Sequence record: SRR2962707_5410 | Length of the DNA stretch: 59,474 bases | Reading direction: 5' to 3' (one strand) | Shown: positions 1,416 through 20,548 of the stretch, piece after piece | Position numbering within the stretch: position 1 is the stretch's first letter | How the letters are laid out: every line of letters starts with the position of its first letter | Position numbers and translations under genes: made by a program | Notes under the pieces: generated by a model | What the model was told of the DNA's origin: nothing | What the model saw: only the letters and a program-made list of their open reading frames with translations | Database searches by the model: none

Positions 1416-1529
1416 AGATCACTTCGATCTGACGTAATTGCGTTTGTATATGTTACTGTCCTATTGTTGACATGACCCAGGCACGGCCATAGCGCAGGTA
1501 CTGCCAACCAGAGCAAGAAGGGGACCGAA

Positions 1530-2435
1530 ATGGACATCAGACGGCTCAACGCATTTGTTAAGATTGTCGACATCGGTAGCATCACCCGTGCCTCAGCTGT
1601 TTTGCACATTGCACAACCAGCTCTAAGCCAACAGATTGCGGCACTTGAAACTCATTTCGGCAGACCTTTGTTGCTGCGCTCAAAACGCGGTGTGGTTCCT
1701 ACTGAAGCAGGCAAGGTTCTCTATCGTCATTGCCAGTTGATTTTGAAACAACTTGATCAAACCGAACTGGAAATTGCCAGCGCTTCCGAAGAAATATCCG
1801 GCGTGGTTTGTGTCGGCCTCGCGCCATTGGGGCTAGGTTCTTTGCTCGCAGCACAACTGATCCAAACCGTGCGGGAAGAGTACCCTGGCATCATTCTCTA
1901 TATAAATGAGAACGTAGGCGGCGGCGCCATGAGCGAACTGGTCATGACCGGGAAAATGGATGTCGCTTTGCTCTTTGATCCAGGAACGATCCCCAGCCTG
2001 TCGTTCAAAAGGATTTGCACAGAAGAGCTGCATTTTGTAACGGCCGATGCCGAACTTCTTGACGGCAAAACAGAGATCCCACTGGCCGAGGCGATTAAGA
2101 CGCCACTTCTTTTACCCAGCAAAATTCACACCATTCGTCAGGTGATCGACACAACCTTGGCCCGCGCTGGACTGACAACCCAACCAATCGCCCAGACTGA
2201 GTCCATTTCAGTAGTGGCAAACGCCATTGGTGAAGGTTTAGGCGCAGCCATCCTGCCGCAGTCCGCCGCGCGCGCTGTGCAACGCCGTGTGCCAGAGGCG
2301 CGCAGCGTGCGGATTCACAAGCCCAACATGAAAGTTAACATGTCGATCTGCGTATCTGCCCAGCTGCCGCTGTCCGAAGCGGCGTCCTTGGTGCAGGATC
2401 ATTTGACCCGGCTGGCAAAAGAACTGTCTACTTAA
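1530..2435 (+). CDS. LysR-family regulator, Nac/TcuR-like
   Basis: N-terminal HTH 'MDIRRLNAFVKIVDIGSITRASAVLHIAQPALSQQIAALE' closely resembling Nac; LysR substrate domain. Confidence 0.9.
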   Translation: MDIRRLNAFVKIVDIGSITRASAVLHIAQPALSQQIAALETHFGRPLLLRSKRGVVPTEAGKVLYRHCQLILKQLDQTELEIASASEEISGVVCVGLAPLGLGSLLAAQLIQTVREEYPGIILYINENVGGGAMSELVMTGKMDVALLFDPGTIPSLSFKRICTEELHFVTADAELLDGKTEIPLAEAIKTPLLLPSKIHTIRQVIDTTLARAGLTTQPIAQTESISVVANAIGEGLGAAILPQSAARAVQRRVPEARSVRIHKPNMKVNMSICVSAQLPLSEAASLVQDHLTRLAKELST

Positions 2436-2608: not shown

Positions 2609-3643
2609 TTATCCATCAAACCGAATTTGGGTTTTGATAGCTGACCGTCTGTCGGACGCAATCTTAAACGCATCTTCTGCAGTCGCCAACGATACCTCGT
2701 GGGTGATCAAAGGCTTTACGTCAATCCGTCCCTGACACATCGCAGCAACTCCTGTCGCAAACTCTTCGTGAAAGCGAAATGAGCCGCGCAGGTCCAGCTC
2801 TTTTGCTGTGACCAACATCATCGGCAACGCCATATCACCGCCTAACCCAAGCTGAACGACGACACCCCGGGGGCGCATGGCCGCAATGGCCGGAGCAATA
2901 GCCGCTGCAACCCCGGTGCATTCCATCAAGACGTCAAACGTGCCTTTTCCGGCACTATAAGACGCCAAACCATCTGGATTCGTGCCGGTATTGATCGTCA
3001 CATCCGCGCCAACGCGCCGAGCCATATCCAGAGTAAAATCACTCAGGTCGGTGGCGACAATTTCAGAAGCCCCTGCGTGGCGAGCAGACAGGATCGCAAG
3101 CAGACCAATTGGGCCGCACCCGGTTACCAATACGCGTTTGCCCAGCATTTCTCCGGCGCGCCGGACCCCGTGCAATGTCACAGCCAAAGGTTCTGCCATG
3201 GCGGCCTCCCCAGCCGTCAGCCCGTTCGCGACCGCGCATTGCGATGCCTTGGCGACAATATCCTGGCGGAACGCCCCTTGAATATGCGGGAACGGCATCG
3301 CCGATCCATAGAACCGCATGTTTTCACAATGGTTCGGCACCCCGGCGTGGCAATAGTCACAGGCCCCACAAGGTCGGGATGGCGACAAGGCGACCAGATC
3401 TCCCTTGGCCAAACCCACAACATCAGGCGCATAATCAACCACGTGACCGGACACTTCGTGACCCAGGATCATCGGCTCCTTCAGCCGCACGGTGCCAAAT
3501 CCACCATGGTTGTAATAGTGAAGATCAGAACCGCAAACCCCGCCAACAGCGGTTTTGATCCGGACCTCACCTGCACCGAGCGTCTGTTCCGCGCAGTCTT
3601 CAATCCGAAGATCTTTTTCTGCATGTATTACAATAGCTTTCAT
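2609..3643 (-). CDS. idnD: L-idonate 5-dehydrogenase (zinc-dependent MDR)
   Basis: Start re-assigned to MKAIVIH (ATG 3643); 'GGVCGSDLHYY', 'GHE', structural Zn CxxCxxC...C, 'GSAMPFPHIQGAF', 'GSFRF' as in IdnD. Confidence 0.85.
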   Translation of the reverse strand: MKAIVIHAEKDLRIEDCAEQTLGAGEVRIKTAVGGVCGSDLHYYNHGGFGTVRLKEPMILGHEVSGHVVDYAPDVVGLAKGDLVALSPSRPCGACDYCHAGVPNHCENMRFYGSAMPFPHIQGAFRQDIVAKASQCAVANGLTAGEAAMAEPLAVTLHGVRRAGEMLGKRVLVTGCGPIGLLAILSARHAGASEIVATDLSDFTLDMARRVGADVTINTGTNPDGLASYSAGKGTFDVLMECTGVAAAIAPAIAAMRPRGVVVQLGLGGDMALPMMLVTAKELDLRGSFRFHEEFATGVAAMCQGRIDVKPLITHEVSLATAEDAFKIASDRRSAIKTQIRFDG

Positions 3644-3650
3644 ATCACCC

Positions 3651-4598
3651 TCACAGAACCGGAGAAAACAGATCAAGACCTGCAAAATGCCGGGCCAGAT
3701 TGTCCCGAACGAGTGCACCCATCGCTTTTCGGGTTTCGACTGTGCCCGAAGCCTGATGTGGTTGAAGCAGGATGTTTGGGAGTGTCTTGAAACGTGGATC
3801 AAGGGCTGGCTCGCCCTCAAAAACGTCCAATGCCGCGCCGCCTAACGTTCCCGCTTCCAACGCGGCGATCAAAGCCGCTTCGTCCACGTTTGACGCGCGG
3901 GAGACGTTAATCAAGACACCTTCTGAACCAAGCGCATCGAGAACGTCCTTGTTGACAATGTGACGTGTCTCGGCAGACGCAGCGGCCGCAACAAAGAAGA
4001 AGTCACAATTTCTTGCCAACTCTATCGGGGTTTCTTGAAAAGCCCAATCAGCGGCATAGTCTTTGGGCGCTACATCTGAATAGGAGATATCCATTCCAAA
4101 CCCAGCCAGACGTTTGGCAATTTCAAAACCAATCCGTCCCATACCAAGCACGCCCGCCCGGCGGCCCCAGACACGGCGATTAAGGGGTAAATTGCCTTGG
4201 CTTTCCCAGCTTCCACTCCGCACCCAAGCATCCGCATCAACAATCCGCCGGGATGAAGCCAACATCATTCCGACCGCCAGATCTGCGACGTCGCCGGAAA
4301 GGACATCGGGGGTATTTGTGACGCGGACATCTCGTTCACGACACGCATCCAGATCAACAGCATCATAGCCAACACCATAGACGGAAATAATTTCGAGATT
4401 GGGACAGGCTTCAATCACGGCCCGCGAAGCCCCAAGCTCTCCGCGTGTTGCAATGGCCTGAACCTCTTTCCCGCAGGCAGTCAGAAACGCCTCTTTGTCG
4501 GTCGCTTCAAAATACCGCCGAACATCATATGCCTGTTCAAGGGGCTCTTCATCCCACGCAGGATAGCCGCCCATTTGAAGAATTACTGGCTTAGTCAC
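3651..4598 (-). CDS. D-2-hydroxyacid dehydrogenase (2-ketogluconate/hydroxypyruvate reductase-like)
   Basis: GTG start at 4598 with AGGAG RBS; 'GVGYD', 'TNTPDVL', GMGRIG, 'INVSR', 'LDVFEGEP', 'QPHQAS'. Confidence 0.85.
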   Translation of the reverse strand: MTKPVILQMGGYPAWDEEPLEQAYDVRRYFEATDKEAFLTACGKEVQAIATRGELGASRAVIEACPNLEIISVYGVGYDAVDLDACRERDVRVTNTPDVLSGDVADLAVGMMLASSRRIVDADAWVRSGSWESQGNLPLNRRVWGRRAGVLGMGRIGFEIAKRLAGFGMDISYSDVAPKDYAADWAFQETPIELARNCDFFFVAAAASAETRHIVNKDVLDALGSEGVLINVSRASNVDEAALIAALEAGTLGGAALDVFEGEPALDPRFKTLPNILLQPHQASGTVETRKAMGALVRDNLARHFAGLDLFSPVL

Positions 4599-4668
4599 TT
4601 TGGTTGTCTCCTGAAATAGTAACCCAACCCAAGTCACCTTGACGCGGAATCTTGAACCGCAGTGACCC

Positions 4669-4698
4669 TTGACTTGGTTAAGTTATCGATAACATATG
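4669..4698 (+). promoter_or_regulatory. GntR(LacI) operator palindrome GTTATCGATAAC within the putative idnO promoter
   Basis: Perfect 12-bp palindrome at 4682-4693 resembling the E. coli GntR box (TGTTACCGGTAACA); TTGACT upstream; lies in the divergent intergenic region. Confidence 0.75.
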
Positions 4699-4739
4699 GA
4701 ATGAAAATTGCGTTGTCGACACCGAATTGGAGAATCCTC

Positions 4740-5531
4740 ATGACTGCATCGAATGACTACCTACAAAGCACCTTTGGCCTGAGTGGTCGCACCGCGCTGA
4801 TCACCGGCTCGTCGCAAGGTATTGGGTTTGCCTTAGCGCGCGGCTTGGCCAAAGCCGGTGCCGCAGTTGTTCTGAACGGGCGCAACAAAGACCGCTTGAC
4901 CGAAGCGCGCGCTGAGCTGCAACTGGAGGTCCCCGAGGCGCAGATTTCAGAACTTGCCTTCGACGTGACAGACCATGACGCCGCGCGCGCCGCAGTTGAT
5001 CAATTCGAAGCCGAAAGCGGCCCTATCCATATTCTGGTCAACAATGCGGGCATGCAGCACCGCTCTGCGCTCGAAGATTTTCCTGCTGATCGTTTTGATG
5101 CGCTGCTTCAGACCAATATCGCGTCCGTTTTCCACGTTGGTCAGGCCGTAGGCCGCCATATGATCAAGCGTCAGTCCGGCAAAATCATCAATATCTGCTC
5201 CGTCCAAACAGCCTTGGCCAGACCAAGCATTGCGCCTTACACAGCAACCAAGGGTGCGGTTGCCAATCTCACAAAAGGGATGGCAACCGATTGGGCCCGC
5301 CATGGCCTGCAATGCAACGCGATTGCGCCAGGCTATTTTGATACCCCGCTGAATGCCGCGCTTGTTGCCGATCCTGAGTTTACAACCTGGCTTGAAAAGC
5401 GCACACCCGCAGCGCGTTGGGGTAAAGTTGACGAACTTGTCGGCGCTTGCATTTTCTTGTCTTCGGAATCGTCCAGCTTTGTGAACGGTCATACGATCTT
5501 TGTTGACGGCGCGATCAGCGTTTCTCTCTGA
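4740..5531 (+). CDS. idnO: Gluconate 5-dehydrogenase (SDR)
   Basis: ATG 4740 after GGAGA; TGSSQGIG, NNAG, YTATK, 'MATDWARHGLQCNAIAPGYF', 'RTPAARWG'. Confidence 0.88.
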   Translation: MTASNDYLQSTFGLSGRTALITGSSQGIGFALARGLAKAGAAVVLNGRNKDRLTEARAELQLEVPEAQISELAFDVTDHDAARAAVDQFEAESGPIHILVNNAGMQHRSALEDFPADRFDALLQTNIASVFHVGQAVGRHMIKRQSGKIINICSVQTALARPSIAPYTATKGAVANLTKGMATDWARHGLQCNAIAPGYFDTPLNAALVADPEFTTWLEKRTPAARWGKVDELVGACIFLSSESSSFVNGHTIFVDGAISVSL

Positions 5532-5541
5532 CGCGATCGGT

Positions 5542-5627
5542 TTTAGAGGAGCGGAAAAGCTTCGCGCGTTTAAGATCAGTCGCCCACCGGCTGGACAAGA
5601 AACGCCTGAGAACCCCGCTCCTCTAAA
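5542..5627. repeat. 13-bp perfect inverted repeat flanking a 60-bp spacer (MITE/REP-like)
   Basis: TTTAGAGGAGCGG (5542-5554) and CCGCTCCTCTAAA (5615-5627). Confidence 0.5.
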
Positions 5628-5796
5628 GACTCCACCGGTTGAACCAGTTTCAGCACAGGCCTCCCTGATCTTGGGCTGTCCACACCTAAAGGGCCCAATT
5701 GAAACTGCCAAATCCCTTGTAGACCAGCTGGTGGGTCCTGCATAAAGCTTCACAACATGGCTGCGAGGCTAGGCCAAGACACGAGCACACAGGTTT

Positions 5797-6825
5797 ATGA
5801 GCAAAAACACCCCCTCGAAAACGCTGAAAATGACGGATATCGCCAAAGCTGTCGGCGTGTCGGCCATGACAGTCTCACGGGCATTTCGCGGTGAGTCTGG
5901 GATCGACCCAAGAACCCGCGCAGCCATTCTCAAAGCTGCTGAGAAAATGGGGTATGTCTTTGATGCCACTGCTGCCAATCTGCGCCAAAACCGGACCGGG
6001 TTTGTTGCGGTGACGGTCCCTTCGCTTAATAACGCGAATTTTGCAGAAACCGTCAGACAGCTTTCCGCCGGGCTTTCTAAAAAGAACATCCAAATTTTAC
6101 TGGCGAACACAGAATACGATGCGGATGAAGAAGAACGCCTCATCGAACAATTGCTGCGCCGCAAGCCAGAAGCCATTGTGTTGACCGGTGGACAGCATAC
6201 CAAGCGCACCCAACAAATGCTGACCGCCTCTCCTATTCCAGTGGTTGAAATGTGGGACCTCCCAGAGGCGCCCATTCAACATGTGGTTGGGTTTTCAAAT
6301 GCCCTTTCGGTGCGTGGTTTGGTCGATCACTTCGTGAATACGGGTTACTCGAAGATAGGTTTTCTTGGTGGCGAATCTGCAAAAGACCCTAGGGGCGTTC
6401 AACGTCGTGCTGGTTTCGTAGATGCTTTGACCGATCACGGATTAGACACCACCCGATTGGTTCCAACGGGCGTTGCTCCTGTTGGAATGGCCGAAGGCGT
6501 CGCAGCACTTGATCTTTTGATAGAGCGGTTTCCAGACACTCAGGCAGTCATCTGCGTCTCAGATCTGATCGCCTTTGGTGTCCTATCGCAGTGCCAGAGA
6601 CGGGGCCTTCATGTACCACATGACCTCGCCGTTGCCGGGTTTGGGAATTATGAAATTGGTCAGGTCTGTGTTCCGAGCCTGACCACAATCGATGTCCACG
6701 CAGGCACAATAGGTGCTAGAGCGGCTGAATTGATCCTCGATCTTTTGTCCACGGGTCCGACGACGCAAGACCCCATCAAGGTCGCCATCAAACCCGATCT
6801 TATTCTGCGCGAATCTTGCAGATAA
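5797..6825 (+). CDS. gntR: LacI-family regulator, GntR/IdnR-like
   Basis: HTH 'MTDIAKAVGVSAMTVSRAF'; 'PSLNNANF', 'PVVEMWDL', 'VGFSN', 'PSLTTI' as in gluconate repressors. Confidence 0.85.
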   Translation: MSKNTPSKTLKMTDIAKAVGVSAMTVSRAFRGESGIDPRTRAAILKAAEKMGYVFDATAANLRQNRTGFVAVTVPSLNNANFAETVRQLSAGLSKKNIQILLANTEYDADEEERLIEQLLRRKPEAIVLTGGQHTKRTQQMLTASPIPVVEMWDLPEAPIQHVVGFSNALSVRGLVDHFVNTGYSKIGFLGGESAKDPRGVQRRAGFVDALTDHGLDTTRLVPTGVAPVGMAEGVAALDLLIERFPDTQAVICVSDLIAFGVLSQCQRRGLHVPHDLAVAGFGNYEIGQVCVPSLTTIDVHAGTIGARAAELILDLLSTGPTTQDPIKVAIKPDLILRESCR

Positions 6826-6858
6826 AAAACGCCGCTTAAGACAGGACTTAAGCGGCGT
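6824..6858 (-). terminator. Intrinsic terminator between convergent gntR and aldolase
   Basis: Stem ACGCCGCTTAAG/CTTAAGCGGCGT; the A-run at 6824-6829 gives a U-tail on the minus strand. Confidence 0.7.
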
Positions 6859-6911: not shown

Positions 6912-7586
6912 TTAAAGGTCCGTGGTCAGGCCTTTGGCTTTCAGCACAGCCTCCAGATTGCAGACATCGATAATCGTGCGGCCAGATTTGTAGGCCTCGA
7001 TATAGCCTGCTTCGTCATCTTCGCGTTTCTGAGATTTTTCCGCGACCTCTGCGGCATCTTCCTTGCGGATCATCACCAGACCATCCGCATCACCACGGAT
7101 CACATCCCCCGGCCGGATCGTTTCACCACCAACGATAACATCGCCGTTGATCTGTCCAAGGGTTTCCTTGACCGTGCCTTTGATGCAGACGCTAAGCGAG
7201 AAAACTGGCAAGCCAAGTTTGATCAGTTCTGCGGTATCGCGCACGCCTGTATCTGTCACAACACCCGCGATGCCTTTTGCGACGCAGGCGTTTCCGAGAA
7301 CGTCACCAAAACTACCGGCTTCTTCGTATTCGCCTGCCGAAACAACAATCACGTCACCTGGCTGTGCAAAATGAATCGCCAGCTGAAGCATCAGGTTATC
7401 GCGGGGCGCGCAAACAACGGTGAACGCCGGGCCACACAAAGACATATCCCGGTCAATGGGCTTGATCCGTGAACTGAGTGCCCCCAAACGACCCTGAGCT
7501 TCGTGAATGGTTGCACTGCCGAATTTGGACAATGCGTCCACATCCTTGGCGGCCGCCCGATCGAATTTGGTGATAATATGGGGCAT
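6912..7586 (-). CDS. 4-hydroxy-4-methyl-2-oxoglutarate / 4-carboxy-4-hydroxy-2-oxoadipate aldolase (RraA/LigK family)
   Basis: 'ATIHEAQGR', 'CGPAFTV', 'DNLM', 'FGDVL', 'GVRD', 'PGDVIRGDADG'. Confidence 0.85.
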   Translation of the reverse strand: MPHIITKFDRAAAKDVDALSKFGSATIHEAQGRLGALSSRIKPIDRDMSLCGPAFTVVCAPRDNLMLQLAIHFAQPGDVIVVSAGEYEEAGSFGDVLGNACVAKGIAGVVTDTGVRDTAELIKLGLPVFSLSVCIKGTVKETLGQINGDVIVGGETIRPGDVIRGDADGLVMIRKEDAAEVAEKSQKREDDEAGYIEAYKSGRTIIDVCNLEAVLKAKGLTTDL

Positions 7587-7809
7587 GTCAGTCCTTCAAT
7601 TCGGATAAGTTTTGCGACCCGTCAAAGGGCCGCATTGGCAGCTAGAATAGAAGAACCCACCCCCCAAGGATAAGAACACCTGCGTCTGACGTGATCGGCT
7701 TTTGCAATGCCTGAAAATGCCGGTCATCTGAAACCGCTCTGACATCATTGCCTTCGCACAATGCTAAGTTTGAAGGCAGAAAAACATTCAAGCGGGGATC
7801 TGCTTTTTC

Positions 7810-8238
7810 ATGCCGATCGAAATCGACGACATAATTGCAAAAATGGAATGGGCCGCGCGGCGCGGTGTTTCAAAATATTCCTTTAGTTTTGCGGGTACGC
7901 GCATCCATATCAGCCGGGATGAAGCGCCCAACGCCCCATCTGTCGTCTCACCAGAAGTCGCACAAGACGCCCAATCTGAACCTGCCACCGCTGATGATAA
8001 GAACGACATTGTTTTTGCCCCGATGGCCGGAATTTGTCATTTGCGCGAAGAGAGCGGCAGCGCGCCCTTTGTATCTGTGGGCGACAAAATCCAAATTGGC
8101 CAGACACTCTGCATGATCGAAGCCATGAAAGTGATGAGTGCAGTCACGGCAACAGAGGCTGGAACGGTCGGCTTAATTCTTGTCGAAGACGGCTCATCGG
8201 TCGACGCGGGCACGGCCTTGGTAAAGGTATCCCCATGA
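7810..8238 (+). CDS. accB: Biotin carboxyl carrier protein
   Basis: Ala/Pro/acidic linker, then biotinyl domain with the 'IEAMKVM' biotinylation lysine. Confidence 0.88.
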   Translation: MPIEIDDIIAKMEWAARRGVSKYSFSFAGTRIHISRDEAPNAPSVVSPEVAQDAQSEPATADDKNDIVFAPMAGICHLREESGSAPFVSVGDKIQIGQTLCMIEAMKVMSAVTATEAGTVGLILVEDGSSVDAGTALVKVSP

Positions 8239-9605
8239 CCCACGCCAAGAAAACAACGGTCCTAATCGCCAACCGTGGGGAAATTGCCCTTCGCATTATC
8301 CGGGCGTGCCGCCGTCTAGGGCTCAGATCTGTCTGCGCTTTTTCCGAAGCGGACCGCGGGGCGCAATACCTTGATCTGGCGGATGACTCGATCTGCATTG
8401 GCCCCGCGTCGGCGACAAAAAGCTATTTGAACATACCGGCAATTCTGGCCGCAGCCGACATAATGAATGCCGACATGATACATCCCGGATACGGATTTTT
8501 GTCTGAAAACGCGGATTTTTCGCAGGCCGTTGCAGATGCCGGACTTACCCTTGTCGGACCAAGCGCAGATGTCATGCGACGCATGGGCGACAAAGTCGCC
8601 GCCAAAAGTGCGATGATCGAAAGCGGTGTGCCCTGTGTGCCCGGCCCGGACACGGTCCTACCTGACGATATGGGCATGATCCGAGGTGTCGCTGACGAAA
8701 TCGGCTACCCCGTTATTCTTAAGGCAGCGGGCGGCGGCGGTGGACGCGGTATGCGCATTGTTAAATCATCCAACGACCTTGCCGACGCCTATATGCTGAC
8801 CAAACAAGAAGCCCAGCGGTTCTTTGGCAATCCAGACATCTACATGGAAAAGTTCCTCCAAAAGCCACGTCATGTTGAGATTCAGGTCATCTCGGATTCG
8901 CATGGAAACGCGCTGTGGTTGGGGGATCGTGATTGCTCTATGCAGCGCCGCCATCAAAAGATGATCGAAGAGGCCCCTGCCCCTGGAATCGACCGCGATA
9001 TCATCGCTCAGATCGGCGAACGTTGTGCCGCGTCTTGTCGGGAAATTGGCTATGTCGGTGCTGGAACTTTTGAATTCCTGTTCGAGAACGGCCAATTCTT
9101 TTTTATCGAGATGAACACCCGTATTCAGGTCGAGCATCCTGTGACGGAAATGGTCACGGGACTTGATATCGTTGCGATGCAAATCGACGTGGCACGTGGG
9201 GGGCGCCTGTCGATCCAGCAAGCCGATGTTCGAACACAGGGTCATGCCATAGAATGCAGGATCAACGCTGAAGATCCGACGACCTTTGCGCCAAGCCCTG
9301 GGCATATCGACTATATGCATGTCCCCGGCGGACCGGGAATACGCGTTGACTCCCACATCGCAACCGGGGCCGACGTGTCCGCCAGCTATGATTCAATGGT
9401 CGCAAAAGTCATTGCCTTTGGTGCGACCCGCAACGAGGCCCTTGCCCGCGCCCGCAGTGCATTGGCAGAAATGCGGATTGATGGCGTTAAATCAAACATC
9501 TCTCTACATTGCCAACTATTGGAAGACCCGGGGTTTTCCGAAGGTGGGGTCAGTATTCACCATCTGGAACACTGGCTAGAAGAACGGGAGTTGGGTCATG
9601 AGTGA
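8235..9605 (+). CDS. accC: Biotin carboxylase subunit (AccC paralogue)
   Basis: Start MTHAKK (ATGA overlap); ANRGEIA, HPGYGFLSEN, GGGGRG, RDCSMQRRHQK, EMNTRIQVEHPVTE. Confidence 0.92.
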   Translation: MTHAKKTTVLIANRGEIALRIIRACRRLGLRSVCAFSEADRGAQYLDLADDSICIGPASATKSYLNIPAILAAADIMNADMIHPGYGFLSENADFSQAVADAGLTLVGPSADVMRRMGDKVAAKSAMIESGVPCVPGPDTVLPDDMGMIRGVADEIGYPVILKAAGGGGGRGMRIVKSSNDLADAYMLTKQEAQRFFGNPDIYMEKFLQKPRHVEIQVISDSHGNALWLGDRDCSMQRRHQKMIEEAPAPGIDRDIIAQIGERCAASCREIGYVGAGTFEFLFENGQFFFIEMNTRIQVEHPVTEMVTGLDIVAMQIDVARGGRLSIQQADVRTQGHAIECRINAEDPTTFAPSPGHIDYMHVPGGPGIRVDSHIATGADVSASYDSMVAKVIAFGATRNEALARARSALAEMRIDGVKSNISLHCQLLEDPGFSEGGVSIHHLEHWLEERELGHE

Positions 9606-10251
9606 GACAAAGCTTTCACTGATTGGCAGTCGAGCAGTCCTGTTCGAAGCCGGCTGCCCATTCGACCTCGCCCACCAAGAACGGATTTGGGCGCTAGTTG
9701 CCGAAGCCTCCCAGTGGGAGGGGGTGTTAGAAGCCGTGCCGGGTATGACCAACCTGACCTTGCTGCTGGCCGATGTTCCGCAGGATCTCGACGGCTTGGA
9801 ACGCAATCTTAGCGCGCTTTGGGCGAAAGGTACGCGGCGAGAAGTGGACGGCAAACTTCTTGAAATCGATCTGACCTATGGGGGCAAAGGCGGACCACAT
9901 CTTGCCGACGTTGCGCAAATGACCGGCATGTCGATTGACGATGTCATCAAAGTACACTGCGCTCAAGACTACACCGTTTATGCCGTCGGAAGTCATGCCG
10001 GATATTGCTACCTTGGCGGACTCGACAAGCGACTTGAAACACCGCGCCGCAAAGTGCCCCTGGCGCGTTTGCCCGGCGGATCGCTTTCTGTCGCTGGCTT
10101 GCAAACCGGGGTCTCCGCATCCGCTGGCCCAAGTGGTTGGAACACAATTGGCTCTGCGGATATCTCTTTTTTCGATCCCGCAAAAACGCCTCCTGCCCTA
10201 CTGCAACCGGGTGATCGTATCCGCTTTTTGCCGGCCGAGGTGATCGCATGA
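9598..10251 (+). CDS. pxpB: PxpB / carboxyltransferase subdomain C-D (allophanate hydrolase subunit 1 family)
   Basis: 'EAVPGMTNL', 'YGG..GPHL..VA', 'YLGGLD..L.TPRR..P', 'GPSGWNTIG', 'LLQPGDRIRF'. Confidence 0.85.
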   Translation: MSETKLSLIGSRAVLFEAGCPFDLAHQERIWALVAEASQWEGVLEAVPGMTNLTLLLADVPQDLDGLERNLSALWAKGTRREVDGKLLEIDLTYGGKGGPHLADVAQMTGMSIDDVIKVHCAQDYTVYAVGSHAGYCYLGGLDKRLETPRRKVPLARLPGGSLSVAGLQTGVSASAGPSGWNTIGSADISFFDPAKTPPALLQPGDRIRFLPAEVIA

Positions 10252-11225
10252 TCGAAGTAATCGCACTTCCCCCGCTGGCAACCATTCAGGATCTTGGGCG
10301 CGACGGCTTTTGGAAACAGGGGTTGGGGCGCGCCGGTGCAATGGATCGTTTAGGTCATAGCCTTGCCAATATCCTGCTTGGCAATGATATCACCGCAGCC
10401 ACGCTAGAAATCCCGCTCACACCGGCGAAATTCAAATTCGTTGAACAGTCGGCATTTGCCCTTGTTGGGGCGGCCTGTGGTGCCCGTCTTGACGGCCATG
10501 TTTTGCCTCGTGTTTTCGCTGGGATCGCCGAAAAAGACCAAACACTTGAGTTGGGGCCGATGACCTCAGGCGCGCGAACCTATCTTGCCCTGGCAGGTGG
10601 CATTGACGTTCCCAAGGTGCTTGGCTCTCGCAGCACTCAGTTACGAGAGAGCTTTGGTGGATTGGAAGGTCGGGTTTTAGCGCCGGGAGACAGGCTCGCC
10701 CCTGCATCCGCGACCCTCCCGGAGATGCCCAAATCCGGTCTCAGCCTGACGATGCCACCGCTGCGTTATGAGCAAGAGTCGAGCATCGTGCTACGGGCTC
10801 TGCCATCCACCGAATATGACAGCTTTGACAAAGACGCGCTCATGGCTTTCTGGTCGCAACCCTATACCGTCACCCCTCAAAGCAACCGTCAGGGCTATCG
10901 CCTTGAGGGTCCCAAACTCGATAGAACCTCCGAAGGTGAATTGCGCTCTCATGGGATTGTTCCCGGCATTGTACAGGTTCCGGGCGGTGGTCAGCCGATC
11001 ATTCAACTTGCGGATTCCGCAACCATGGGCGGCTATCCAAAGATCGCTGCGGTGATAGAGCAAGATTTGTGGAAAATCGGCCAAGCTCGCCCCGGCGATA
11101 CAATTCGCTTTGAAAAGATCACGCTTGAAACAGCGACGCAGGCCGTCCGGGAAGAGGCGGAATTGTTGGCGCGGTTTGAAGCCGACCTGAAACACCTCAC
11201 CAAACAAATGACGAGCTGGAGTTAA
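10248..11225 (+). CDS. pxpC: PxpC / carboxyltransferase subdomain A-B (allophanate hydrolase subunit 2 family)
   Basis: 'TIQDLGR', 'GAMD', 'ANILLGN', 'GARTYLALAGG', 'LGSRST', 'SNRQGYRL', 'QVPGGGQPII..ADSATMGGYP'. Confidence 0.88.
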   Translation: MIEVIALPPLATIQDLGRDGFWKQGLGRAGAMDRLGHSLANILLGNDITAATLEIPLTPAKFKFVEQSAFALVGAACGARLDGHVLPRVFAGIAEKDQTLELGPMTSGARTYLALAGGIDVPKVLGSRSTQLRESFGGLEGRVLAPGDRLAPASATLPEMPKSGLSLTMPPLRYEQESSIVLRALPSTEYDSFDKDALMAFWSQPYTVTPQSNRQGYRLEGPKLDRTSEGELRSHGIVPGIVQVPGGGQPIIQLADSATMGGYPKIAAVIEQDLWKIGQARPGDTIRFEKITLETATQAVREEAELLARFEADLKHLTKQMTSWS

Positions 11226-11226
11226 C

Positions 11227-11631
11227 ATGTTTACGCAAGCAGAACTCGACCGTCTTATCGACGCCATGCGGGCAAATTCGGTGACCTGCCTTGAGGTAGA
11301 TGCCGAAGACATGTCGCTTGAACTTCACCTGCCGGTTGCGGCCGCAGCATCCACCGCTCCTTCGGAACCCGCTGAGAAGAAACCGGGCAAGCAAGTGGTT
11401 AAAAGCCCTGGCATCGGAACATTTCTACCGCGCGGGCAAGACGACGGTCTGGACAGGGTTGACCCGCAAACCAAAATCTCTGCAGGCGATACACTTGGTT
11501 ACATCGTTCAAGGTGTCGTCCGCGTTCCGGTCATCTCCCCGACTGAAGGCCGAATAATTGGCCCAACTCCTTCAGAAGGCGCGGTATTTGGATATGGCGA
11601 CACCGTTTTTAATCTGGAAGTGATACCATGA
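11227..11631 (+). CDS. BCCP-like protein lacking the biotinylation lysine
   Basis: AccB-like N-terminus (ELDRLIDAM...LEV), Ala/Pro linker, 'VKSPGIGTF', 'GDTLGYI', 'GYGDTVF'; EAMK replaced by VQGVV. Confidence 0.7.
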   Translation: MFTQAELDRLIDAMRANSVTCLEVDAEDMSLELHLPVAAAASTAPSEPAEKKPGKQVVKSPGIGTFLPRGQDDGLDRVDPQTKISAGDTLGYIVQGVVRVPVISPTEGRIIGPTPSEGAVFGYGDTVFNLEVIP

Positions 11632-12392
11632 AGATCGACATCAACTCTGATCTTGGCGAAGGCTTTGGCCCCTATACGATCGCCGATGACGCCGCGCTGA
11701 TGGAACTCATCAGCTCCGCCAACGTCGCCTGTGGCTATCACGCTGGTGATCCCGTCATTATGGACCGGACCATTCGTCTTGCCAAAGAGCATAATGTTGA
11801 TCTGGGCGCGCATGTCAGCTTTCCCGACATGATGGGATTCGGGCGGCGCAAAATTGATATGGCGATGCCCGAGCTTGAGGCCCATATCCTCTATCAACTC
11901 GGGGCACTTTATGCGCTAGCGCGCCGCGCCGACCATCGCATCACCCACATGAACCCGCATGGCGCCCTTGGAAACCTTGCGAGCTCTGACCCCATCGTTG
12001 CCCACTCCGTCGCTGCCGCAACAATGGCGTTTGACCCTGAAATTGCGTTTCTCGTCCTGCCGGGCAGCGCGCTTGAAAAAGCCGCGCTTGATATGGGCGG
12101 GCGGGTTGTCCAGTTATTTTTGGCGGATCGAGGGTATTTGCCCAACGGACAACTGGCCCCACGCGGACAAGCAGGCGCCGTAATCCATGATCCGGCCCAA
12201 GTTGCAAACCGGGTCTTACACGTCCTGAAATCAGCCACAGTTGAAACGGTCACCGGAGAGGTGATCGAGATGCCCGTACAATCCATCTTGGTTCATTCCG
12301 ACACAGCCGGCGCGGTTGAACTCGCAACACGCCTGAAACACGACATTACCAAGGCCGGCGGCTCCGTAACTCCGCTGTCCAAACAAAAATAG
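11628..12392 (+). CDS. pxpA: PxpA (LamB/YcsF family)
   Basis: 'IDINSDLGEGFG', 'SSANVACGYHAGDP', 'GAHVSFPD..GFGRR', 'PHGALGN', 'ADRGY', 'VHSDT'. Confidence 0.9.
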   Translation: MKIDINSDLGEGFGPYTIADDAALMELISSANVACGYHAGDPVIMDRTIRLAKEHNVDLGAHVSFPDMMGFGRRKIDMAMPELEAHILYQLGALYALARRADHRITHMNPHGALGNLASSDPIVAHSVAAATMAFDPEIAFLVLPGSALEKAALDMGGRVVQLFLADRGYLPNGQLAPRGQAGAVIHDPAQVANRVLHVLKSATVETVTGEVIEMPVQSILVHSDTAGAVELATRLKHDITKAGGSVTPLSKQK

Positions 12393-12432
12393 ATCGACGC
12401 GCACGATCGAGCGAAAAAATAAGGAAATTTAA

Positions 12433-13206
12433 ATGGCATTCTCAGATTACAAAACAGCGCTCGTAACAGGAGCCTCTAGCGGCATGGGCTGGGCGATTGC
12501 AGAACGTCTGCGTGCCAAGGGGCTATCCGTGCATGCTGTGGGGCGAAACGAGGAAAAGCTCCAAGAGCTGAAAGAGCTTTGCGGCGTTATCCCTCATGCG
12601 GTGGATGTCACGGATACCGCTGCCATCACGGAAATGGTGGATGGGCTGGAAATCGATGTGCTTGTGAACTGCGCCGGCGTATCTCGCCCTGGTAGCCTCC
12701 TGCAATCCGACGCCTACGACATTGACGAACAAATCGACGTCAATCTGCGTGCCGGCCTGCAACTATGCCGTTTGATTTTGCCTGGCATGATGGCGCGTGA
12801 TAGCGGCCACATCGTCAACGTCACGTCCATGGCGGCACATTACGAATTTGGCGGCCACATTGCCTACCACGCGACTAAAGCGGCGATGCACACCGTGTCG
12901 CGCCAGCTCCGTGTCGATGCTTTCGGCCGCCGCGTTCGGATCACCGAAATCAGCCCTGGCCGTGTCGAAACAGACATTTTTGCCCGCGTCGAAAAAATTG
13001 ATCCGGCGGAAGCCAAGCGCAAATATTTCGAAGGCTTTGAAATGCCCCAAACGTCTGACATCGCGGATGCCGTCGAATACGCGGTTGGCACGCCTCAGTA
13101 TGTGAATATCGGTATGATCGAACTGCTGCCCACACTGCAAGTTCCCGGCGGTCTGCGCACAGGGAAACGCGTCGGCGACGAAGTGATCTTGACCGGCAAT
13201 AAGTAA
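12433..13206 (+). CDS. SDR oxidoreductase (YdfG-like, probably NADP-dependent)
   Basis: TGASSGMG, NCAG, YHATK, 'VRITEISPGRVET'. Confidence 0.85.
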   Translation: MAFSDYKTALVTGASSGMGWAIAERLRAKGLSVHAVGRNEEKLQELKELCGVIPHAVDVTDTAAITEMVDGLEIDVLVNCAGVSRPGSLLQSDAYDIDEQIDVNLRAGLQLCRLILPGMMARDSGHIVNVTSMAAHYEFGGHIAYHATKAAMHTVSRQLRVDAFGRRVRITEISPGRVETDIFARVEKIDPAEAKRKYFEGFEMPQTSDIADAVEYAVGTPQYVNIGMIELLPTLQVPGGLRTGKRVGDEVILTGNK

Positions 13207-13363
13207 AACCTACGATCTCGTGGCCCCGGCGCACTGCTCATGCCGGGGCTGACCAAAACCGTCATCGCGATTGGCTATCGTGCCAGACCGAAACGAGCTG
13301 AGTGATCTGACCGTTGGCTTGATAAACTGGCTGAACCAACCCTCAATTTGCAGGAAGACGACC

Positions 13364-14572
13364 TTGAAACCTATTAAACTCGCCGCACGCGTCACCAATA
13401 TCAGAGTGTCGCCTTCGACCGCCGCCGCTCAGAAAGTGCGCGACCTAAAGGCCGAAGGACGCCAAATCCTGAACCTGACCGTGGGCGAACCCGATTTCGA
13501 TACACCAGACAGCATCAAAGCTGCGGCGATTGCCGCCATCCATGCTGGCGACACAAAATATACGCCTGTGAATGGCACAGTGGACCTTAGAAAAGCCATT
13601 CAGCACGACTTTAAATCACGCTTGAACATCGATGCCACGCTGGATGAAATCTGTGTTGGTGGCGGTGGGAAACAAGTGTTGTTTGTCGCCATGATGGCCA
13701 CCGTTGAAGAAGGGGATGAAGTCATCATCCCAGCGCCCTATTGGGTCTCTTACCCCGACATGGTCATTGCAAACGGCGGGACACCGGTGATTGTCGAATG
13801 TGGCGATGATGTCGGTTTCAAACTGACGCCAGACGCGTTGGAAGCCACCATCACCCCCAACACCAAATGGGTCATTTTGAATTCACCGTCCAACCCAACC
13901 GGTGCGGCCTATACAGCGGATGAGCTGCGCGCGCTTGGAGAGGTCATCCTGAAGCACCCGCATGTGCTTGTGATGTGCGATGAGATGTATGACCGCATCT
14001 GGTTTGCTGATTTTGATGCGACCAGCATTCTGGGGGTTGTGCCCGAACTCAAAAACCAGGCTTTGGTCTCGAACGGGATTTCCAAGTCCTTTGCCATGAC
14101 AGGTTGGCGGATTGGCTATGCGGTTGGGCCCCTTGATCTGATCAACGCGATCAACAAATTGCAGTCTCAAATGTCGTCCTGCCCATCATCGATCAGTCAG
14201 GCCGCAGCGGCGGATGCGCTGATGGGCGACCAGACCAGCGTTCAGGCCTCAGTGGACGTCTATCGCGCGCGCCGTGACCGCGCCCACGAGCTGATCAACG
14301 CCATTCCGGGACTAAGCTGCCGCCTGCCGGACGGCGCCTTTTACCTGTTCCCCAGCTGTGCTGGCGCCATCGGTAAAACCACTCCGGACGGTAAGAAGAT
14401 TGAAAACGATCTTGATTTCGGCCTCTACCTTCTTGAATCCGCAGGCGTAGCCTCCGTCCACGGCGGCGCCTACGGGTTAGAGCCCTATTTCCGCATTTCC
14501 ACAGCGACCTCGATGGAAGAAATCGAGGCCGCCTGTGCCGCCATCGGCGAGGCCATGGCCGCGTTGGTGTAA
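13364..14572 (+). CDS. Class I PLP aminotransferase (aspartate aminotransferase-like)
   Basis: TTG start after AGGAAG; 'GEPDFDTP', 'PAPYWVSY', 'NSPSNPTG', 'DEMY', 'SKSFAMTGWRIGY', 'GAFY'. Confidence 0.9.
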   Translation: MKPIKLAARVTNIRVSPSTAAAQKVRDLKAEGRQILNLTVGEPDFDTPDSIKAAAIAAIHAGDTKYTPVNGTVDLRKAIQHDFKSRLNIDATLDEICVGGGGKQVLFVAMMATVEEGDEVIIPAPYWVSYPDMVIANGGTPVIVECGDDVGFKLTPDALEATITPNTKWVILNSPSNPTGAAYTADELRALGEVILKHPHVLVMCDEMYDRIWFADFDATSILGVVPELKNQALVSNGISKSFAMTGWRIGYAVGPLDLINAINKLQSQMSSCPSSISQAAAADALMGDQTSVQASVDVYRARRDRAHELINAIPGLSCRLPDGAFYLFPSCAGAIGKTTPDGKKIENDLDFGLYLLESAGVASVHGGAYGLEPYFRISTATSMEEIEAACAAIGEAMAALV

Positions 14573-14594: not shown

Positions 14595-14630
14595 AAAACC
14601 GCCAGGCACCGCACGTGCCTGGCGGTTTTT
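14595..14630. terminator. Bidirectional intrinsic terminator
   Basis: AAAACCGCCAGGCAC-cgcac-GTGCCTGGCGGTTTTT between convergent genes. Confidence 0.8.
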
Positions 14631-18677: not shown

Positions 18678-18678
18678 G

Positions 18679-20530: not shown

Positions 20531-20548
20531 CAAGAGTTTTCGACTTTG

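Follow-up and report, generated by a model that had tools for sequence, protein, structure and literature searches.

A recurrent gene module joining biotin carboxylase, PxpABC and a lysine-less BCCP paralogue, a candidate split lactam-opening enzyme

In the window, the whole 59,474-nt stretch of DNA that was analysed, nine genes proposed by a first-pass annotation were confirmed in position using the ORF list, Pfam and NCBIfam (Table 1). Those on the plus strand, from 7810 to 14572, follow the order BCCP, biotin carboxylase (BC), PxpB, PxpC, a 134-aa BCCP-like protein, PxpA, SDR and aspartate-type aminotransferase, and an RraA-type CHA/HMG aldolase gene diverges from this operon. The tight coupling claimed from BCCP to PxpA holds at every junction, all of which overlap or abut: ATGA overlaps join BCCP to BC, PxpB to PxpC and the 134-aa ORF to PxpA, BC and PxpB overlap by 8 nt, and 1 nt lies between PxpC and the ORF at 11227–11631. 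A gap of 40 nt follows PxpA, and 157 nt holding a hairpin separate the SDR from the aminotransferase start (TTG 13364). As also claimed, no carboxyltransferase of the AccA/AccD or PCC-beta type occurs among the 50 window ORFs scanned, a scan that left out 13 ORFs of at least 150 aa, all shorter than 215 aa.

Table 1. Positions of genes and sequence elements at the locus, numbered along the window
Feature	Position	Strand	Basis
dctQ 5' part (TRAP small membrane subunit), gene cut by window edge	2..295	-	identity to L016 DctQ
dctP, TRAP substrate-binding protein	308..1288	-	Pfam DctP, NCBIfam TRAP_S1
Operator-like motif TCTGACGTAAT upstream of dctP	1428..1438	+	dyad ATTAC-N11-GTGAT on dctP strand
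LysR-family regulator, NAC-like	1530..2435	+	NF008410 NAC
Zn-dependent alcohol dehydrogenase, L-idonate-5-dehydrogenase-like, accessory	2609..3643	-	NF007375; inferred start
D-2-hydroxyacid dehydrogenase (glyoxylate/hydroxypyruvate-reductase-like), accessory	3651..4637	-	Pfam 2-Hacid_dh + 2-Hacid_dh_C
SDR, gluconate-5-dehydrogenase-like, accessory	4662..5531	+	PRK07523
LacI-family regulator (GntR/IdnR-like)	5797..6825	+	family profile matches
Terminator-like hairpin 3' of aldolase gene	6829..6858	-	12-bp stem, then TTTTTT
RraA-family class II pyruvate aldolase (CHA/HMG aldolase / oxaloacetate decarboxylase type)	6912..7586	-	Pfam RraA-like; NF006731
Two operator-like words, TCTGACGTGAT (7685) and TCTGACATCAT (7738), divergent promoter region	7685..7748	+	conservation
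BCCP, full-length AccB-like, biotinyl-lysine motif EAMKV	7810..8238	+	Pfam Biotin_lipoyl E 9e-18
Biotin carboxylase (ATP-grasp), housekeeping AccC paralogue	8235..9605	+	three BC domains; NF006367
PxpB/KipI-type subunit (CT subdomains C and D)	9598..10251	+	PF02682 E 3e-58; TIGR00370
PxpC/KipA-type subunit (CT subdomains A and B)	10248..11225	+	PF02626 (CT_A_B) E 2.5e-85
Lys-less BCCP paralogue	11227..11631	+	profile comparison, alignment, fold
PxpA (LamB/YcsF family), presumed amide-hydrolysing subunit	11628..12392	+	PF03746 E 1.3e-87
SDR, YdfG-like (3-hydroxy-acid / malonic-semialdehyde-reductase type)	12433..13206	+	NF007829, 3ASU
Class I (aspartate-type) aminotransferase	13364..14572	+	PF00155; NF004769 (PRK06107)
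Strong two-way terminator-like hairpin closing operon	14595..14629		15-bp stem between A and T runs

The BCCP motif reads EAMKVM in the window, and the biotinyl-lysine motif is retained in 6/6 cluster BCCPs aligned and in 6/6 distant loci. The BC matched the AccC subfamily model NF006367 (675 bits; cut-off 597) and is not the housekeeping AccC, a separate AccC-like gene with 51–53% identity being present in five of five related genomes. Its start was placed at ATG 8235, and a 523-aa TTG frame from 8034 was rejected. PxpB exceeded the PxpB equivalog TIGR00370 (184 bits; cut-off 146), with E. coli YbgJ (5DUD_B, E 1.6e-49) as its closest solved structure. Urea carboxylase was absent from the PxpB structure matches at E 0.001 or better, so that the catalytic lysine of that enzyme, K1605 (PMC5770610), could not be placed. 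PxpC scored 289 bits against the NCBIfam PxpC equivalog, below its cut-off of 500; its solved relatives are 5DUD_A (8.6e-68), 3MML (1.3e-38) and KlUC 3VA7 (1.7e-37), and its homologues bear the RefSeq name 'biotin-dependent carboxyltransferase family protein'. PxpA matched NF003814 (325 bits; cut-off 226).

Earlier described as BCCP-like, the 134-aa ORF proved so in fold (Foldseek, hhalign and alignment) but lacks the biotinyl lysine. It has no match in Pfam or NCBIfam, and comprises an AccB-like N-terminal helix, a Pro/Ala linker and a biotinyl-type barrel without the lysine. It aligns colinearly with the cluster BCCP, hhalign between the two gave a probability of 64% (E 6e-5), the AF2 model reached a pLDDT of 82.9, and the top Foldseek match was 1BDO, the E. 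coli BCCP biotinyl domain (target TM-score 0.85). Lysine occupies the EAMK column in 0/20 members of the family and, as judged from sequence, the Lys-less BCCP is a protein that cannot carry biotin. In a complex model it docked on PxpC with a score of 0.78 (best of three controls, 0.00), its hairpin 94–103 being predicted to contact PxpC 161–171 and 309–320, with at least 93% of contacts agreeing across runs and a partner pLDDT of at least 70. The model contains four chains, unlike the calibration set, in which 51 of the 78 solved complexes passed the docking mark, as did 2 of the 108 mismatched pairs, and was run without alignments made for this analysis; since similar complexes are already solved (3VA7, 9YX5), the pass may reflect model memory. 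In the available text on MSMEG_0435, a PxpC homologue, two BCCP domains are bound: the biotin of one is inserted in a position suited to carboxyl transfer, and in the other both lysine and biotin are disordered (PMC13012033). The Lys-less BCCP is probably a structural subunit seated on PxpC, either as a tether or standing in at a second BCCP site.

Recurrence elsewhere places the arrangement far beyond chance, the 19 loci compared spanning Rhodobacteraceae, Roseibium, six distant Pseudomonadota genomes, Paracoccus and Rhizobium johnstonii pRL10 (the window, L001–L004, L012–L017, L020–L025 with L028, L026 of pRL10 and L027 of Paracoccus); they are not independent, twelve being marine-type alphaproteobacteria, with several close relatives. 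All 19 loci have PxpA, PxpB, PxpC, the Lys-less BCCP and the aminotransferase; 18 have BC with BCCP, 18 the SDR (at least 55% identity) and 17 the aldolase (at least 68% identity). The aminotransferase gene varies in position and lies elsewhere in L015, L016 and L017, and at least five gene orders were recorded. The named genes thus co-occur across genomes and gene orders, contrary to the lack of co-occurrence that the first-pass annotation had named as refuting its proposal. L016 (genome G654) has no BC or BCCP in the cluster but retains PxpABC, the Lys-less BCCP and the SDR, indicating that a dedicated BC/BCCP is dispensable or supplied in trans; G654 has another BC+PxpA cluster. Plain BC+PxpABC operons stand beside the module in G001 and G654 with the extra genes missing; the one in G001 (L018) has a mini-BCCP that keeps its lysine, and lacks the Lys-less BCCP, aminotransferase, SDR and aldolase. 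A fused HyuA/B-type protein of ~1,200 aa, with the eukaryote-type 5-oxoprolinase architecture, occurs in G001, G003 and G004, so that plain 5-oxoproline may already be covered there; the LamB/YcsF gene of the module is the only one in G003 and in G004. According to the available part of an INSeq study, Rhizobium homologues of PxpB/C and BC/BCCP are needed in pea nodules, pRL100433-34 being nodule-general and pRL100436-37 nodule-bacteria-specific (bioRxiv 10.1101/2020.05.07.082560). What this analysis adds is the Lys-less BCCP subtype, together with the downstream enzymes linked to the module and the connection to a nodule phenotype.

The best NCBIfam match of the operon SDR was NF007829 YdfG, at 145 bits against a cut-off of 411; its closest solved structure, 3ASU (E 2.3e-35), is named only as an SDR in the PDB table, and we take it to be E. 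coli YdfG. Identity of this SDR across 17 other loci is 55–89%. The aminotransferase exceeded NF004769 (PRK06107; 660 bits, cut-off 617). Its longest frame runs from TTG 13271, and its most likely start, judged from the RBS aggaag and a length of 402 aa like that in L013 and L016, is TTG 13364. The aldolase exceeded NF006731 (CHA aldolase/OAA decarboxylase; 216 bits, cut-off 179) and fell below TIGR02798 (190 bits, cut-off 304.5); its closest solved structure is 3NOJ (E 2.4e-46), and its identity across 16 other loci is 68–87%.

The dctQ fragment, with no Pfam match of its own, shares 70% identity over 96 aa with the DctQ of L016, itself confirmed by Pfam, and a DctP homologue adjoins the module in eight loci. 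The closest solved relatives of DctP are 2PFY and 2PFZ (B. pertussis DctP6/DctP7; E 6e-30), solved with bound 5-oxoproline according to the available text (PMC13274462); the relationship is only distant, and ligand identity therefore cannot be transferred. The operator word upstream of dctP is the word found in the aldolase/BCCP intergenic region. The block containing ATCACGTCAGA upstream of dctP is kept in 7/7 loci aligned, the cores of the aldolase/BCCP words are nearly invariant in 10/10, and within each ~20-kb marine-type locus exact words occur in these two places only; across the whole window, allowing at most one mismatch, 10 matches were counted against 3.15 expected. This common motif ties the TRAP importer to the operon. 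A candidate regulator of the module is the NAC-like LysR protein (294.6 bits to NF008410 NAC, below the cut-off of 309), homologues of which occur in 16 of the 19 loci, the pRL10 orthologue being named nac in RefSeq. An ABC polar-amino-acid system replaces TRAP in other lineages, and the L022 ABC binding protein is nearest to Gln/Glu/Arg binders. The three dehydrogenases at 2609–5531, probably controlled by the LacI regulator, co-travel with the module. The alcohol dehydrogenase scored 344 bits to NF007375 (cut-off 469) from residue 60 of a 403-aa frame, the D-2-hydroxyacid dehydrogenase best matched glyoxylate reductase in NCBIfam (194 bits, cut-off 455), and the SDR at 4662–5531 reached 455 bits for the PRK07523 subfamily (cut-off 413) and 309 for the gluconate 5-DH equivalog, below its cut-off of 408. 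The TRAP transporter/LysR regulon link, the Lys-less nature of the second BCCP, the co-travelling dehydrogenases and the published Rhizobium cluster with its nodule fitness phenotype are absent from the first-pass annotation.

We favour, with evenly divided confidence, the reading that the module encodes a biotin-dependent enzyme for opening lactams, split into subunits and resembling urea carboxylase, whose product goes on to transamination and aldol cleavage. The region would act as a single catabolic unit, breaking down a lactam-type cyclic amide derived from an acidic or polar amino acid and imported via the co-regulated TRAP system. With ATP and bicarbonate, BC would charge the biotin of the EAMK-bearing BCCP with a carboxyl group, and the carboxybiotin would pass to PxpB/PxpC, homologues of the urea-carboxylase carboxyltransferase domain, which would most likely transfer CO2 to the ring nitrogen and activate the amide. 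PxpA would hydrolyse the activated ring and the carbamate would then lose CO2, the net outcome being ring opening driven by ATP. The released alpha-amino acid would be transaminated by the aspartate-type aminotransferase, the resulting 4-hydroxy-2-oxo acid would be cleaved by the RraA-type aldolase to pyruvate and an aldehyde or oxo acid, and the YdfG-like SDR, perhaps with the three accessory dehydrogenases, may handle the aldolase product or substrate hydroxyls. The class of substrate, carboxylation at nitrogen, the function given to the Lys-less BCCP and the sequence of the downstream reactions are all inferred. Pyroglutamates with a 4-hydroxy, 4-methyl or 4-carboxy substituent had been put forward in the first-pass annotation as possible substrates. 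The split-enzyme idea, already put forward from the sequence, gains partial support from co-occurrence, from the separate AccC and, in the available texts, from a PxpC homologue holding BCCP biotin (PMC13012033) and from P. putida PxpABC paralogues that each hydrolyse a lactam of their own, 5-oxoproline in the case of PP_4575-7 and butyrolactam in that of PP_2920-2 (bioRxiv 10.1101/2021.12.09.472016). Counted against it are the missing BC and BCCP of the L016 cluster, the lack of a urea carboxylase match for PxpB at E 0.001 or better, the greater closeness of PxpC to E. coli PxpC (YbgK; 8.6e-68) than to urea carboxylase (1.7e-37) and the unexplained role of the three dehydrogenases. The separation of the aminotransferase, with its intervening hairpin and its other sites in three loci, is likewise counted against this reading.

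An unlikely alternative is a biotin-assisted 5-oxoprolinase for 5-oxo-L-proline, in which TRAP would import pyroglutamate, the enzyme would yield glutamate, the aminotransferase would convert this to 2-oxoglutarate, and the RraA protein would serve as an oxaloacetate decarboxylase balancing the amino acceptor. PxpB and PxpA pass their equivalog and subfamily models, PxpC and PxpB are nearest to YbgK and YbgJ, DctP is nearest to 5-oxoproline binders, other LamB/YcsF genes are missing from G003 and G004, and the NCBIfam name of the aldolase family also covers oxaloacetate decarboxylase; yet PxpC stays below the PxpC equivalog, the SDR and aldolase, found in 18 and 17 of the 19 loci, would have no needed role, the fused HyuA/B-type enzyme is also present in G001, G003 and G004, and G001 and G654 possess plain operons beside the module. 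The absence of BC and BCCP from L016, which keeps the rest of the module, argues against a true carboxylase retaining CO2 in its product (from an amide, ureide, guanidine-like or activated carbon substrate), with PxpA then hydrolysing or decyclising, like allophanate hydrolase after urea carboxylase. BC, BCCP and a UC-type CT do constitute a carboxylase architecture, and the aldolase family acts on 4-carboxy-4-hydroxy-2-oxoadipate, so that an extra carboxyl could find use downstream. However, nothing in the module singles out any one carboxylated intermediate, the genetics of PxpABC paralogues indicate net hydrolysis in the available text (bioRxiv 10.1101/2021.12.09.472016), and we rate this reading as decidedly improbable.

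Urea catabolism by urea carboxylase and allophanate hydrolase is the reading printed for pRL100433-37 in the available part of the INSeq study (bioRxiv 10.1101/2020.05.07.082560), in line with the NAC-like regulator and with an older annotation as 'allophanate hydrolase subunits 1 and 2'. It is scarcely credible here: by Pfam and NCBIfam the cluster holds no amidase-signature allophanate hydrolase, TIGR02712 is matched only piecewise (478, 197 and 36 bits; cut-off 1304), and an amino-acid-type importer, aminotransferase, aldolase and SDR would be senseless for urea. The available text on the mycobacterial KipI/KipA-type pair likewise reports no urea carboxylase activity, and no detectable homology of such proteins to allophanate hydrolase (PMC13012033). 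Biotin is sequestered in that mycobacterial structure, and BADC proteins are described, in the text available, as inactive BCCP homologues that inhibit ACCase; by likeness to MSMEG_0435-0436, for which such a role on the mycobacterial LCC complex is proposed, and to plant BADC damping ACCase, PxpB/PxpC and the Lys-less BCCP might be regulators sequestering biotinylated BCCP to tune a carboxylase, as the predicted docking of the Lys-less hairpin on PxpC would allow. What makes such a regulatory role very unlikely is that the module brings its own BC and BCCP, and that the 50 window ORFs scanned include no further carboxyltransferase that could be regulated, together with tight coupling to PxpA and co-regulation with the importer and catabolic enzymes.

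The genes between 6912 and 14572 form a conserved functional unit. All those named by the first-pass annotation are present there according to ORF calls, Pfam, NCBIfam and translations, and the observation is real. The six leading plus-strand genes, from BCCP to PxpA, are joined by overlaps of 4 or 8 nt or separated by a single nt, in agreement with the tight coupling described earlier. The reported lack of AccA/AccD also holds, as no AccA/AccD- or PCC-beta-type carboxyltransferase occurs among the 50 window ORFs scanned; an amidase-type allophanate hydrolase was found neither in the cluster nor among those ORFs. Rfam returned no family in the window, so that no guanidine or other riboswitch is present, and the remaining window is ordinary chromosome (pyrB-like, prs, ETF-QO, MoeA, FdhD and an RND pump). 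Downstream of the SDR stop codon and ahead of the aminotransferase start, a GC-rich hairpin lacking a T-run might serve as an attenuator or for processing.

Features of the module and its surroundings (positions in the window unless a locus, genome or replicon is named)
Feature	Position	Strand	Remarks
dctP (TRAP system)	308-1288		dctQ cut at window edge
Dehydrogenase trio	2609-6825		
Dehydrogenase trio, L028	3678-6431		
Dehydrogenase trio, L004	13472-16322		
Dehydrogenase trio, Paracoccus L027	12711-16770		
Terminator-like hairpin	6829-6858		closes the aldolase gene
RraA-family aldolase	6912-7586	-	NF006731, 216 bits vs cut-off 179; nearest solved structure 3NOJ
BCCP, full-length AccB-like	7810-8238	+	EAMKV motif
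Biotin carboxylase (BC)	8235-9605	+	ATG start read from sequence; PF00289, PF02786, PF02785
PxpB	9598-10251	+	CT_C_D type; 184 bits vs 146
PxpC	10248-11225	+	CT_A_B type
134-aa ORF (Lys-less BCCP)	11227-11631	+	assigned by fold and alignment; no Pfam or NCBIfam match
PxpA	11628-12392	+	subfamily NF003814, 325 bits vs 226
YdfG-like SDR	12433-13206	+	
GC-rich hairpin	13224-13249		
Aspartate-type aminotransferase	TTG 13364 (probable start)	+	preceded by AGGAAG ribosome-binding site
Terminator-like hairpin	14595-14629		closes the operon
311-aa ORF	14668-15603	-	between operon terminator and TIM-barrel gene; no Pfam or NCBIfam match
ABC importer and TIM-barrel gene	15766-22177		peptide/opine/nickel type (SBP_bac_5); xylose-isomerase-like
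DAO-family FAD oxidase	22818-24155		AmaA-like, 425 bits vs cut-off 600
Simpler second operon L018, Pacificibacter maritimus	G001:C6, 6594-11993		LysR, then PxpA, mini-BCCP, BC, PxpB, PxpC
Hydantoinase_B matches in fused frames	G001:C1:1178891-1180411; G003:C22:78887-80407; G004:C6:58650-60170		eukaryote-type 5-oxoprolinase layout
Module on pRL10, Rhizobium johnstonii 3841	pRL100424-pRL100437		BCCP, BC, hypothetical, pxpB, 'biotin-dependent carboxyltransferase', PxpA, aminotransferase; nac; SDR, amino-acid ABC transporter, CHA aldolase

Conservation was judged from genomes and loci of relatives. A pattern scan with the Lys-less protein yielded four loci (Pacificibacter maritimus, P. marinus, a Marinosulfonomonas MAG and Roseibium algae), and another 400 genomes from the same family, searched with a profile, contributed six; a class-wide sample of 400 genomes gave no other strong match to the narrow profile. 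A broader profile including distant Lys-less proteins was unspecific, matching 372 of 401 genomes and mostly ordinary AccB; consequently, only its six best matches, in a sample of 400 further Pseudomonadota genomes, were followed and no frequency was drawn. All six lie in the same module, so that at least 6 of these 400 genomes carry it, and it also occurs on two annotated plasmids or chromids, those of Paracoccus sp. MA and Rhizobium johnstonii 3841 (pRL10). Across the 19 loci, which include the window and are not independent, several being close relatives, PxpA, PxpB, PxpC, the Lys-less BCCP and the aminotransferase are each present in 19/19. BC with BCCP occurs in 18, a YdfG-like SDR of at least 55% identity in 18, the aldolase (at least 68% identity) in 17 and the NAC-like LysR in 16, two loci ending too early and one being doubtful. 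Co-occurrence of the named genes in other genomes, on which the initial proposal had been made to depend, is therefore borne out. The Lys-less marker was also found in 168 plasmid records, mostly of Rhizobium, and separately in marine Rhodobacteraceae. The module is common.

Gene order varies among these loci. The Lys-less gene occupies the PxpC/PxpA interval in the window and L025, and the BC/PxpB interval in pRL10 and L021-L024. For the aminotransferase, the preceding gene is the SDR in the window and PxpA in pRL10; in L015 and L017 its neighbour is the aldolase. A separate operon in pRL10 and L022 unites the SDR and the aldolase with a four-gene ABC importer of the polar-amino-acid type. 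Plain operons of BC, mini-BCCP and PxpABC, such as L018, resemble the module in placing a dedicated BC and BCCP beside PxpA, PxpB and PxpC, but encode a single short BCCP (~78 aa, EVMKT) that retains the lysine, with no Lys-less paralogue, aminotransferase, SDR or aldolase. The absence of these additional genes from L018 indicates that aminotransferase, SDR and aldolase go with the Lys-less subtype.

Two words, TCTGACGTGAT and TCTGACATCAT, occupy the 223-bp aldolase/BCCP intergenic region, with nearly invariant cores in 10/10 loci aligned, including Roseibium and L016, a locus without BC that keeps both. Their reverse complement lies upstream of dctP in 7/7 loci, inside the dyad ATCAC-N11-GTGAT, and in each of the marine-type loci the exact words occur only at these two places; they were not found in the distant loci. 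Common words at both places put the TRAP system, the operon and the aldolase in one regulon, for which the adjacent NAC-like LysR is the candidate regulator. DctQ and DctM of the TRAP system were confirmed in L004 and L016.

The biotin-dependent components were compared with known families. BC contains the N-terminal, ATP-grasp and C-terminal domains and scores 675 bits against NF006367 (cut-off 597), and the carrier motif (A/V)MK(M/V/L) is present in the BCCP, its EAMK lysine being kept in 6/6 homologues and in 6/6 homologues of distant loci. The carboxyltransferase (CT) component is of urea carboxylase (UC) type, with CT_A_B in PxpC and CT_C_D in PxpB. Scores against the UC model TIGR02712 fall below its cut-off of 1304 bits (BC 478, PxpC 197, BCCP 36, PxpB no match), and PxpB aligned with none of the UC chains at E 0.001 or better, the comparison by which the CT catalytic lysine (KlUA K1605) and the residues that bind urea were sought. 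Among the PxpABC 5-oxoprolinase models, PxpB and PxpA pass and PxpC fails NF045499 (289 bits vs 500). An AccC-like gene lies elsewhere in 5/5 related genomes, 51-53% identical to the cluster BC and accompanied by PCC/MCC/PC-type paralogues, which makes the cluster BC an extra copy. The contrary locus is L016 of a Rhodobacteraceae genome (7816-8129), where the aldolase is followed by 315 bp and then by PxpB, PxpC, the Lys-less BCCP, PxpA and SDR, cluster BC and BCCP having been lost or never present; the genome of this locus holds another BC+PxpA cluster on contig 2.

The 134-aa protein had been called BCCP-like, a description that stands for its biotinyl-domain fold and not for the biotinyl lysine, which is absent. 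The AlphaFold (AF2) model (pLDDT 82.9) matches the E. coli BCCP biotinyl domain 1BDO in Foldseek (E 4e-5, target TM-score 0.85), and hhalign relates the protein to the cluster BCCP (probability 64%, E 6e-5). Cluster BCCPs align with it end to end, through an N-terminal helix, a Pro/Ala linker and a C-terminal barrel; EAMK is found in 6/6 aligned BCCPs and a lysine at the same column in 0/20 members of the Lys-less family, which show instead a nearly invariant arginine two residues further on. A search of 1.84 billion representatives with the family profile retrieved 240 proteins at E<=1e-10 and 36 at <=1e-30. The lysine is missing from 143 of the 158 relatives collected; the 15 that retain it are mostly ordinary (A/V)MK carriers. 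Such proteins are variously named 'hypothetical', 'acetyl-CoA carboxylase', 'biotin carboxyl carrier protein' or 'biotin/lipoyl-containing protein' in the sources. The Lys-less family is not rare.

A four-chain model of PxpA, PxpB, PxpC and the Lys-less BCCP scored 0.78, against 0.00 for the best of three controls, above a pass mark reached by 51/78 solved complexes and 2/108 mismatched pairs; this score was obtained with the prepared alignments unused, for four chains unlike the calibration set, and with like complexes (3VA7, 9YX5) already solved. Contact agreement between runs was at least 93%, partner pLDDT was at least 70, and the modelled contact places the lysine-free hairpin 94-103, including R99, on PxpC residues 161-171 and the C-terminal helix 309-320. 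The predicted arrangement shows a likeness to BCCP-on-CT docking rather than proof of it. A parallel is provided by the mycobacterial LCC structure, in which a PxpC/PxpB pair with the PxpC homologue MSMEG_0435 binds two BCCP domains; the biotin of one is inserted and 'positioned to participate in a carboxylation reaction', and in the other both lysine and biotin are unresolved (PMC13012033). There, in contrast, the BCCPs belong to AccA3 of another enzyme, a regulatory role is proposed, and the text consulted describes no PxpA, BC or BCCP beside the PxpC/PxpB genes (PMC13012033). By analogy, the two such sites on PxpC may here be filled by one live and one lysine-free BCCP, a pairing that recalls the mycobacterial one.

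We consider, as a rather unlikely reading, that the Lys-less BCCP serves as a tether built into the complex: BC would be held by its AccB-like N-terminus and a second BCCP site of PxpC filled by its lysine-free barrel, which would assemble a split enzyme for lactam opening via transient N-carboxylation from carboxybiotin. If this tether reading were true, the same chemistry might run in all PxpABC '5-oxoprolinases', and those without a BC of their own would borrow the housekeeping BC and BCCP, as hinted by the mycobacterial structure and BC-less L016; moreover, what Rhizobium needs in pea nodules as 'urea catabolism' would be the breakdown of a cyclic amino-acid derivative of plant origin, possibly hydroxylated.

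UC and urea amidolyase (K. lactis KlUC, 3VA7, and KlUA, 5I8I) resemble the module in their BC, BCCP and CT subdomains A-B (PxpC-like) and C-D (PxpB-like), and their logic of N-carboxylation with ATP and bicarbonate followed by hydrolysis (PMC5770610) is shared with the module as proposed. The module, however, is split into separate proteins, includes the additional Lys-less BCCP and has a LamB/YcsF-type PxpA as hydrolase in place of the amidase-signature allophanate hydrolase; its PxpC resembles E. coli PxpC more closely than UC, and the surrounding genes argue against urea as substrate. PxpA, PxpB and PxpC homologues are shared with the 5-oxoprolinases (E. coli YbgJKL, B. subtilis KipI/KipA/YcsF, C. 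glutamicum pxpTABC) and the P. putida butyrolactam hydrolase PP_2920-2, for which genetic work shows ATP-type lactam opening with paralogue-specific substrates; fitness data in P. putida show the PxpABC paralogues to be lactam hydrolases of distinct specificity, one acting on 5-oxoproline and the other on butyrolactam (bioRxiv 10.1101/2021.12.09.472016). Unlike the module, these operons contain no BC, BCCP, Lys-less BCCP, aminotransferase, SDR or aldolase, and the C. glutamicum and C. difficile Pxp papers do not mention biotin dependence. In Aspergillus nidulans, LamA is a urea-amidolyase-like BC-CT-BCCP fusion, and this fungal, fused system converts 2-pyrrolidinone to GABA. LamB is, by Pfam name, the founding member of the PxpA family, and both genes serve lactam catabolism under AmdR control (PMC8016842); the lam system differs in having no Lys-less BCCP and no alpha-amino-acid downstream steps. 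Plant BADC proteins, which inhibit plastid ACCase, offer an analogy only: these BCCP homologues likewise lack the biotinyl lysine and become part of a biotin-enzyme complex.

Evidence on the substrate comes from the transporters and downstream enzymes. The best solved relatives of DctP are B. pertussis DctP6 and DctP7 (E 6e-30), both solved with 5-oxoproline bound (PMC13274462), and for the ABC binding protein of L022 the nearest relatives are binders of the Gln/Glu/Arg type. Since the aminotransferase is of the alpha-amino-acid (aspartate) type, ring opening should yield an alpha-amino acid, and a 4-hydroxy-2-oxo acid is what the aldolase family requires; the aldolase matches P. putida HMG/CHA aldolase (3NOJ) at E 2.4e-46 and passes NF006731, but not the narrower TIGR02798 (190 bits vs 304.5). 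Beside the module in three related genomes (G001, G003 and G004), fused HyuA/B-type frames of ~1,200-1,240 aa carry a full Hydantoinase_B match, from which it might be argued, weakly, that the module serves another compound. These hints fit the substituted pyroglutamate suggested by the first-pass annotation and name no compound. The guesses considered, none of them claimed, include 4-hydroxy-5-oxoproline, 6-oxopipecolate derivatives, sugar-acid lactams, opine lactams, the 2-oxoglutaramate lactam and cyclic ureides.

The pRL10 genes of R. johnstonii 3841 constitute the same module at 40-70% identity, and the hypothetical protein encoded among them is the Lys-less BCCP (hhalign probability 98.6%); relative to the window, an ABC importer replaces the TRAP system and the Lys-less gene is inserted after BC, ahead of pxpB. 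In an INSeq study of this strain, pRL100433-34 ('allophanate hydrolase') are nodule-general and pRL100436-37 (biotin carboxylase) nodule-bacteria-specific, from which an importance of urea catabolism in nodules was deduced by its authors (bioRxiv 10.1101/2020.05.07.082560). We infer, on the basis of gene order and the wording of that paper rather than a table, that these pairs are PxpC/PxpB and BC/BCCP of the module. Urea is an unlikely substrate for it, given the lack of an allophanate hydrolase and the presence of an amino-acid importer, aminotransferase and aldolase; the fitness phenotype in Rhizobium-pea symbiosis was explained in print through an outdated annotation. The main text of the 2011 rhizosphere transcriptomics by Ramachandran does not mention the pRL10 genes.

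What is new at this locus is a distinct subtype marked by a lysine-free BCCP, with its fixed partnership with aminotransferase, SDR and RraA aldolase, an operator common with the importer and a link to a symbiosis phenotype. The literature searched contains no characterised enzyme combining BC, BCCP, PxpB/C and PxpA and no report of the module's chemistry, and to our knowledge the biotin-carboxylase family has few substrate classes. Knowing the substrate would reveal a nutrient that is exchanged both in nodules and in sea water, would let one test carboxybiotin as a leaving-group activator for amide hydrolysis, and would explain why a biotin enzyme keeps a carrier protein unable to carry biotin.

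Several neighbouring genes recur with the module. The dehydrogenase trio, often accompanied by a LacI regulator, comprises an L-idonate-5-DH-like Zn-ADH, a D-2-hydroxyacid DH and a gluconate-5-DH-like SDR, no member passing its named equivalog model. In 12/19 loci the retrieved range contains two or more of the three, at several positions; in genome G947 the trio directly follows the aldolase on the same strand, with a 35-nt gap, a 4-nt overlap and an 11-nt gap in turn. An unrelated insertion was considered for these genes and dropped, because the trio travels with the module across loci; it may be part of the pathway, in which case it would hint at a polyhydroxylated substrate. On the other side, the ABC block adjoins the module, in either orientation, in the window, L001, L003 and L012-L014 and partly in L016, and a 'sugar phosphate isomerase/epimerase' flanks it in pRL10 and Paracoccus too.
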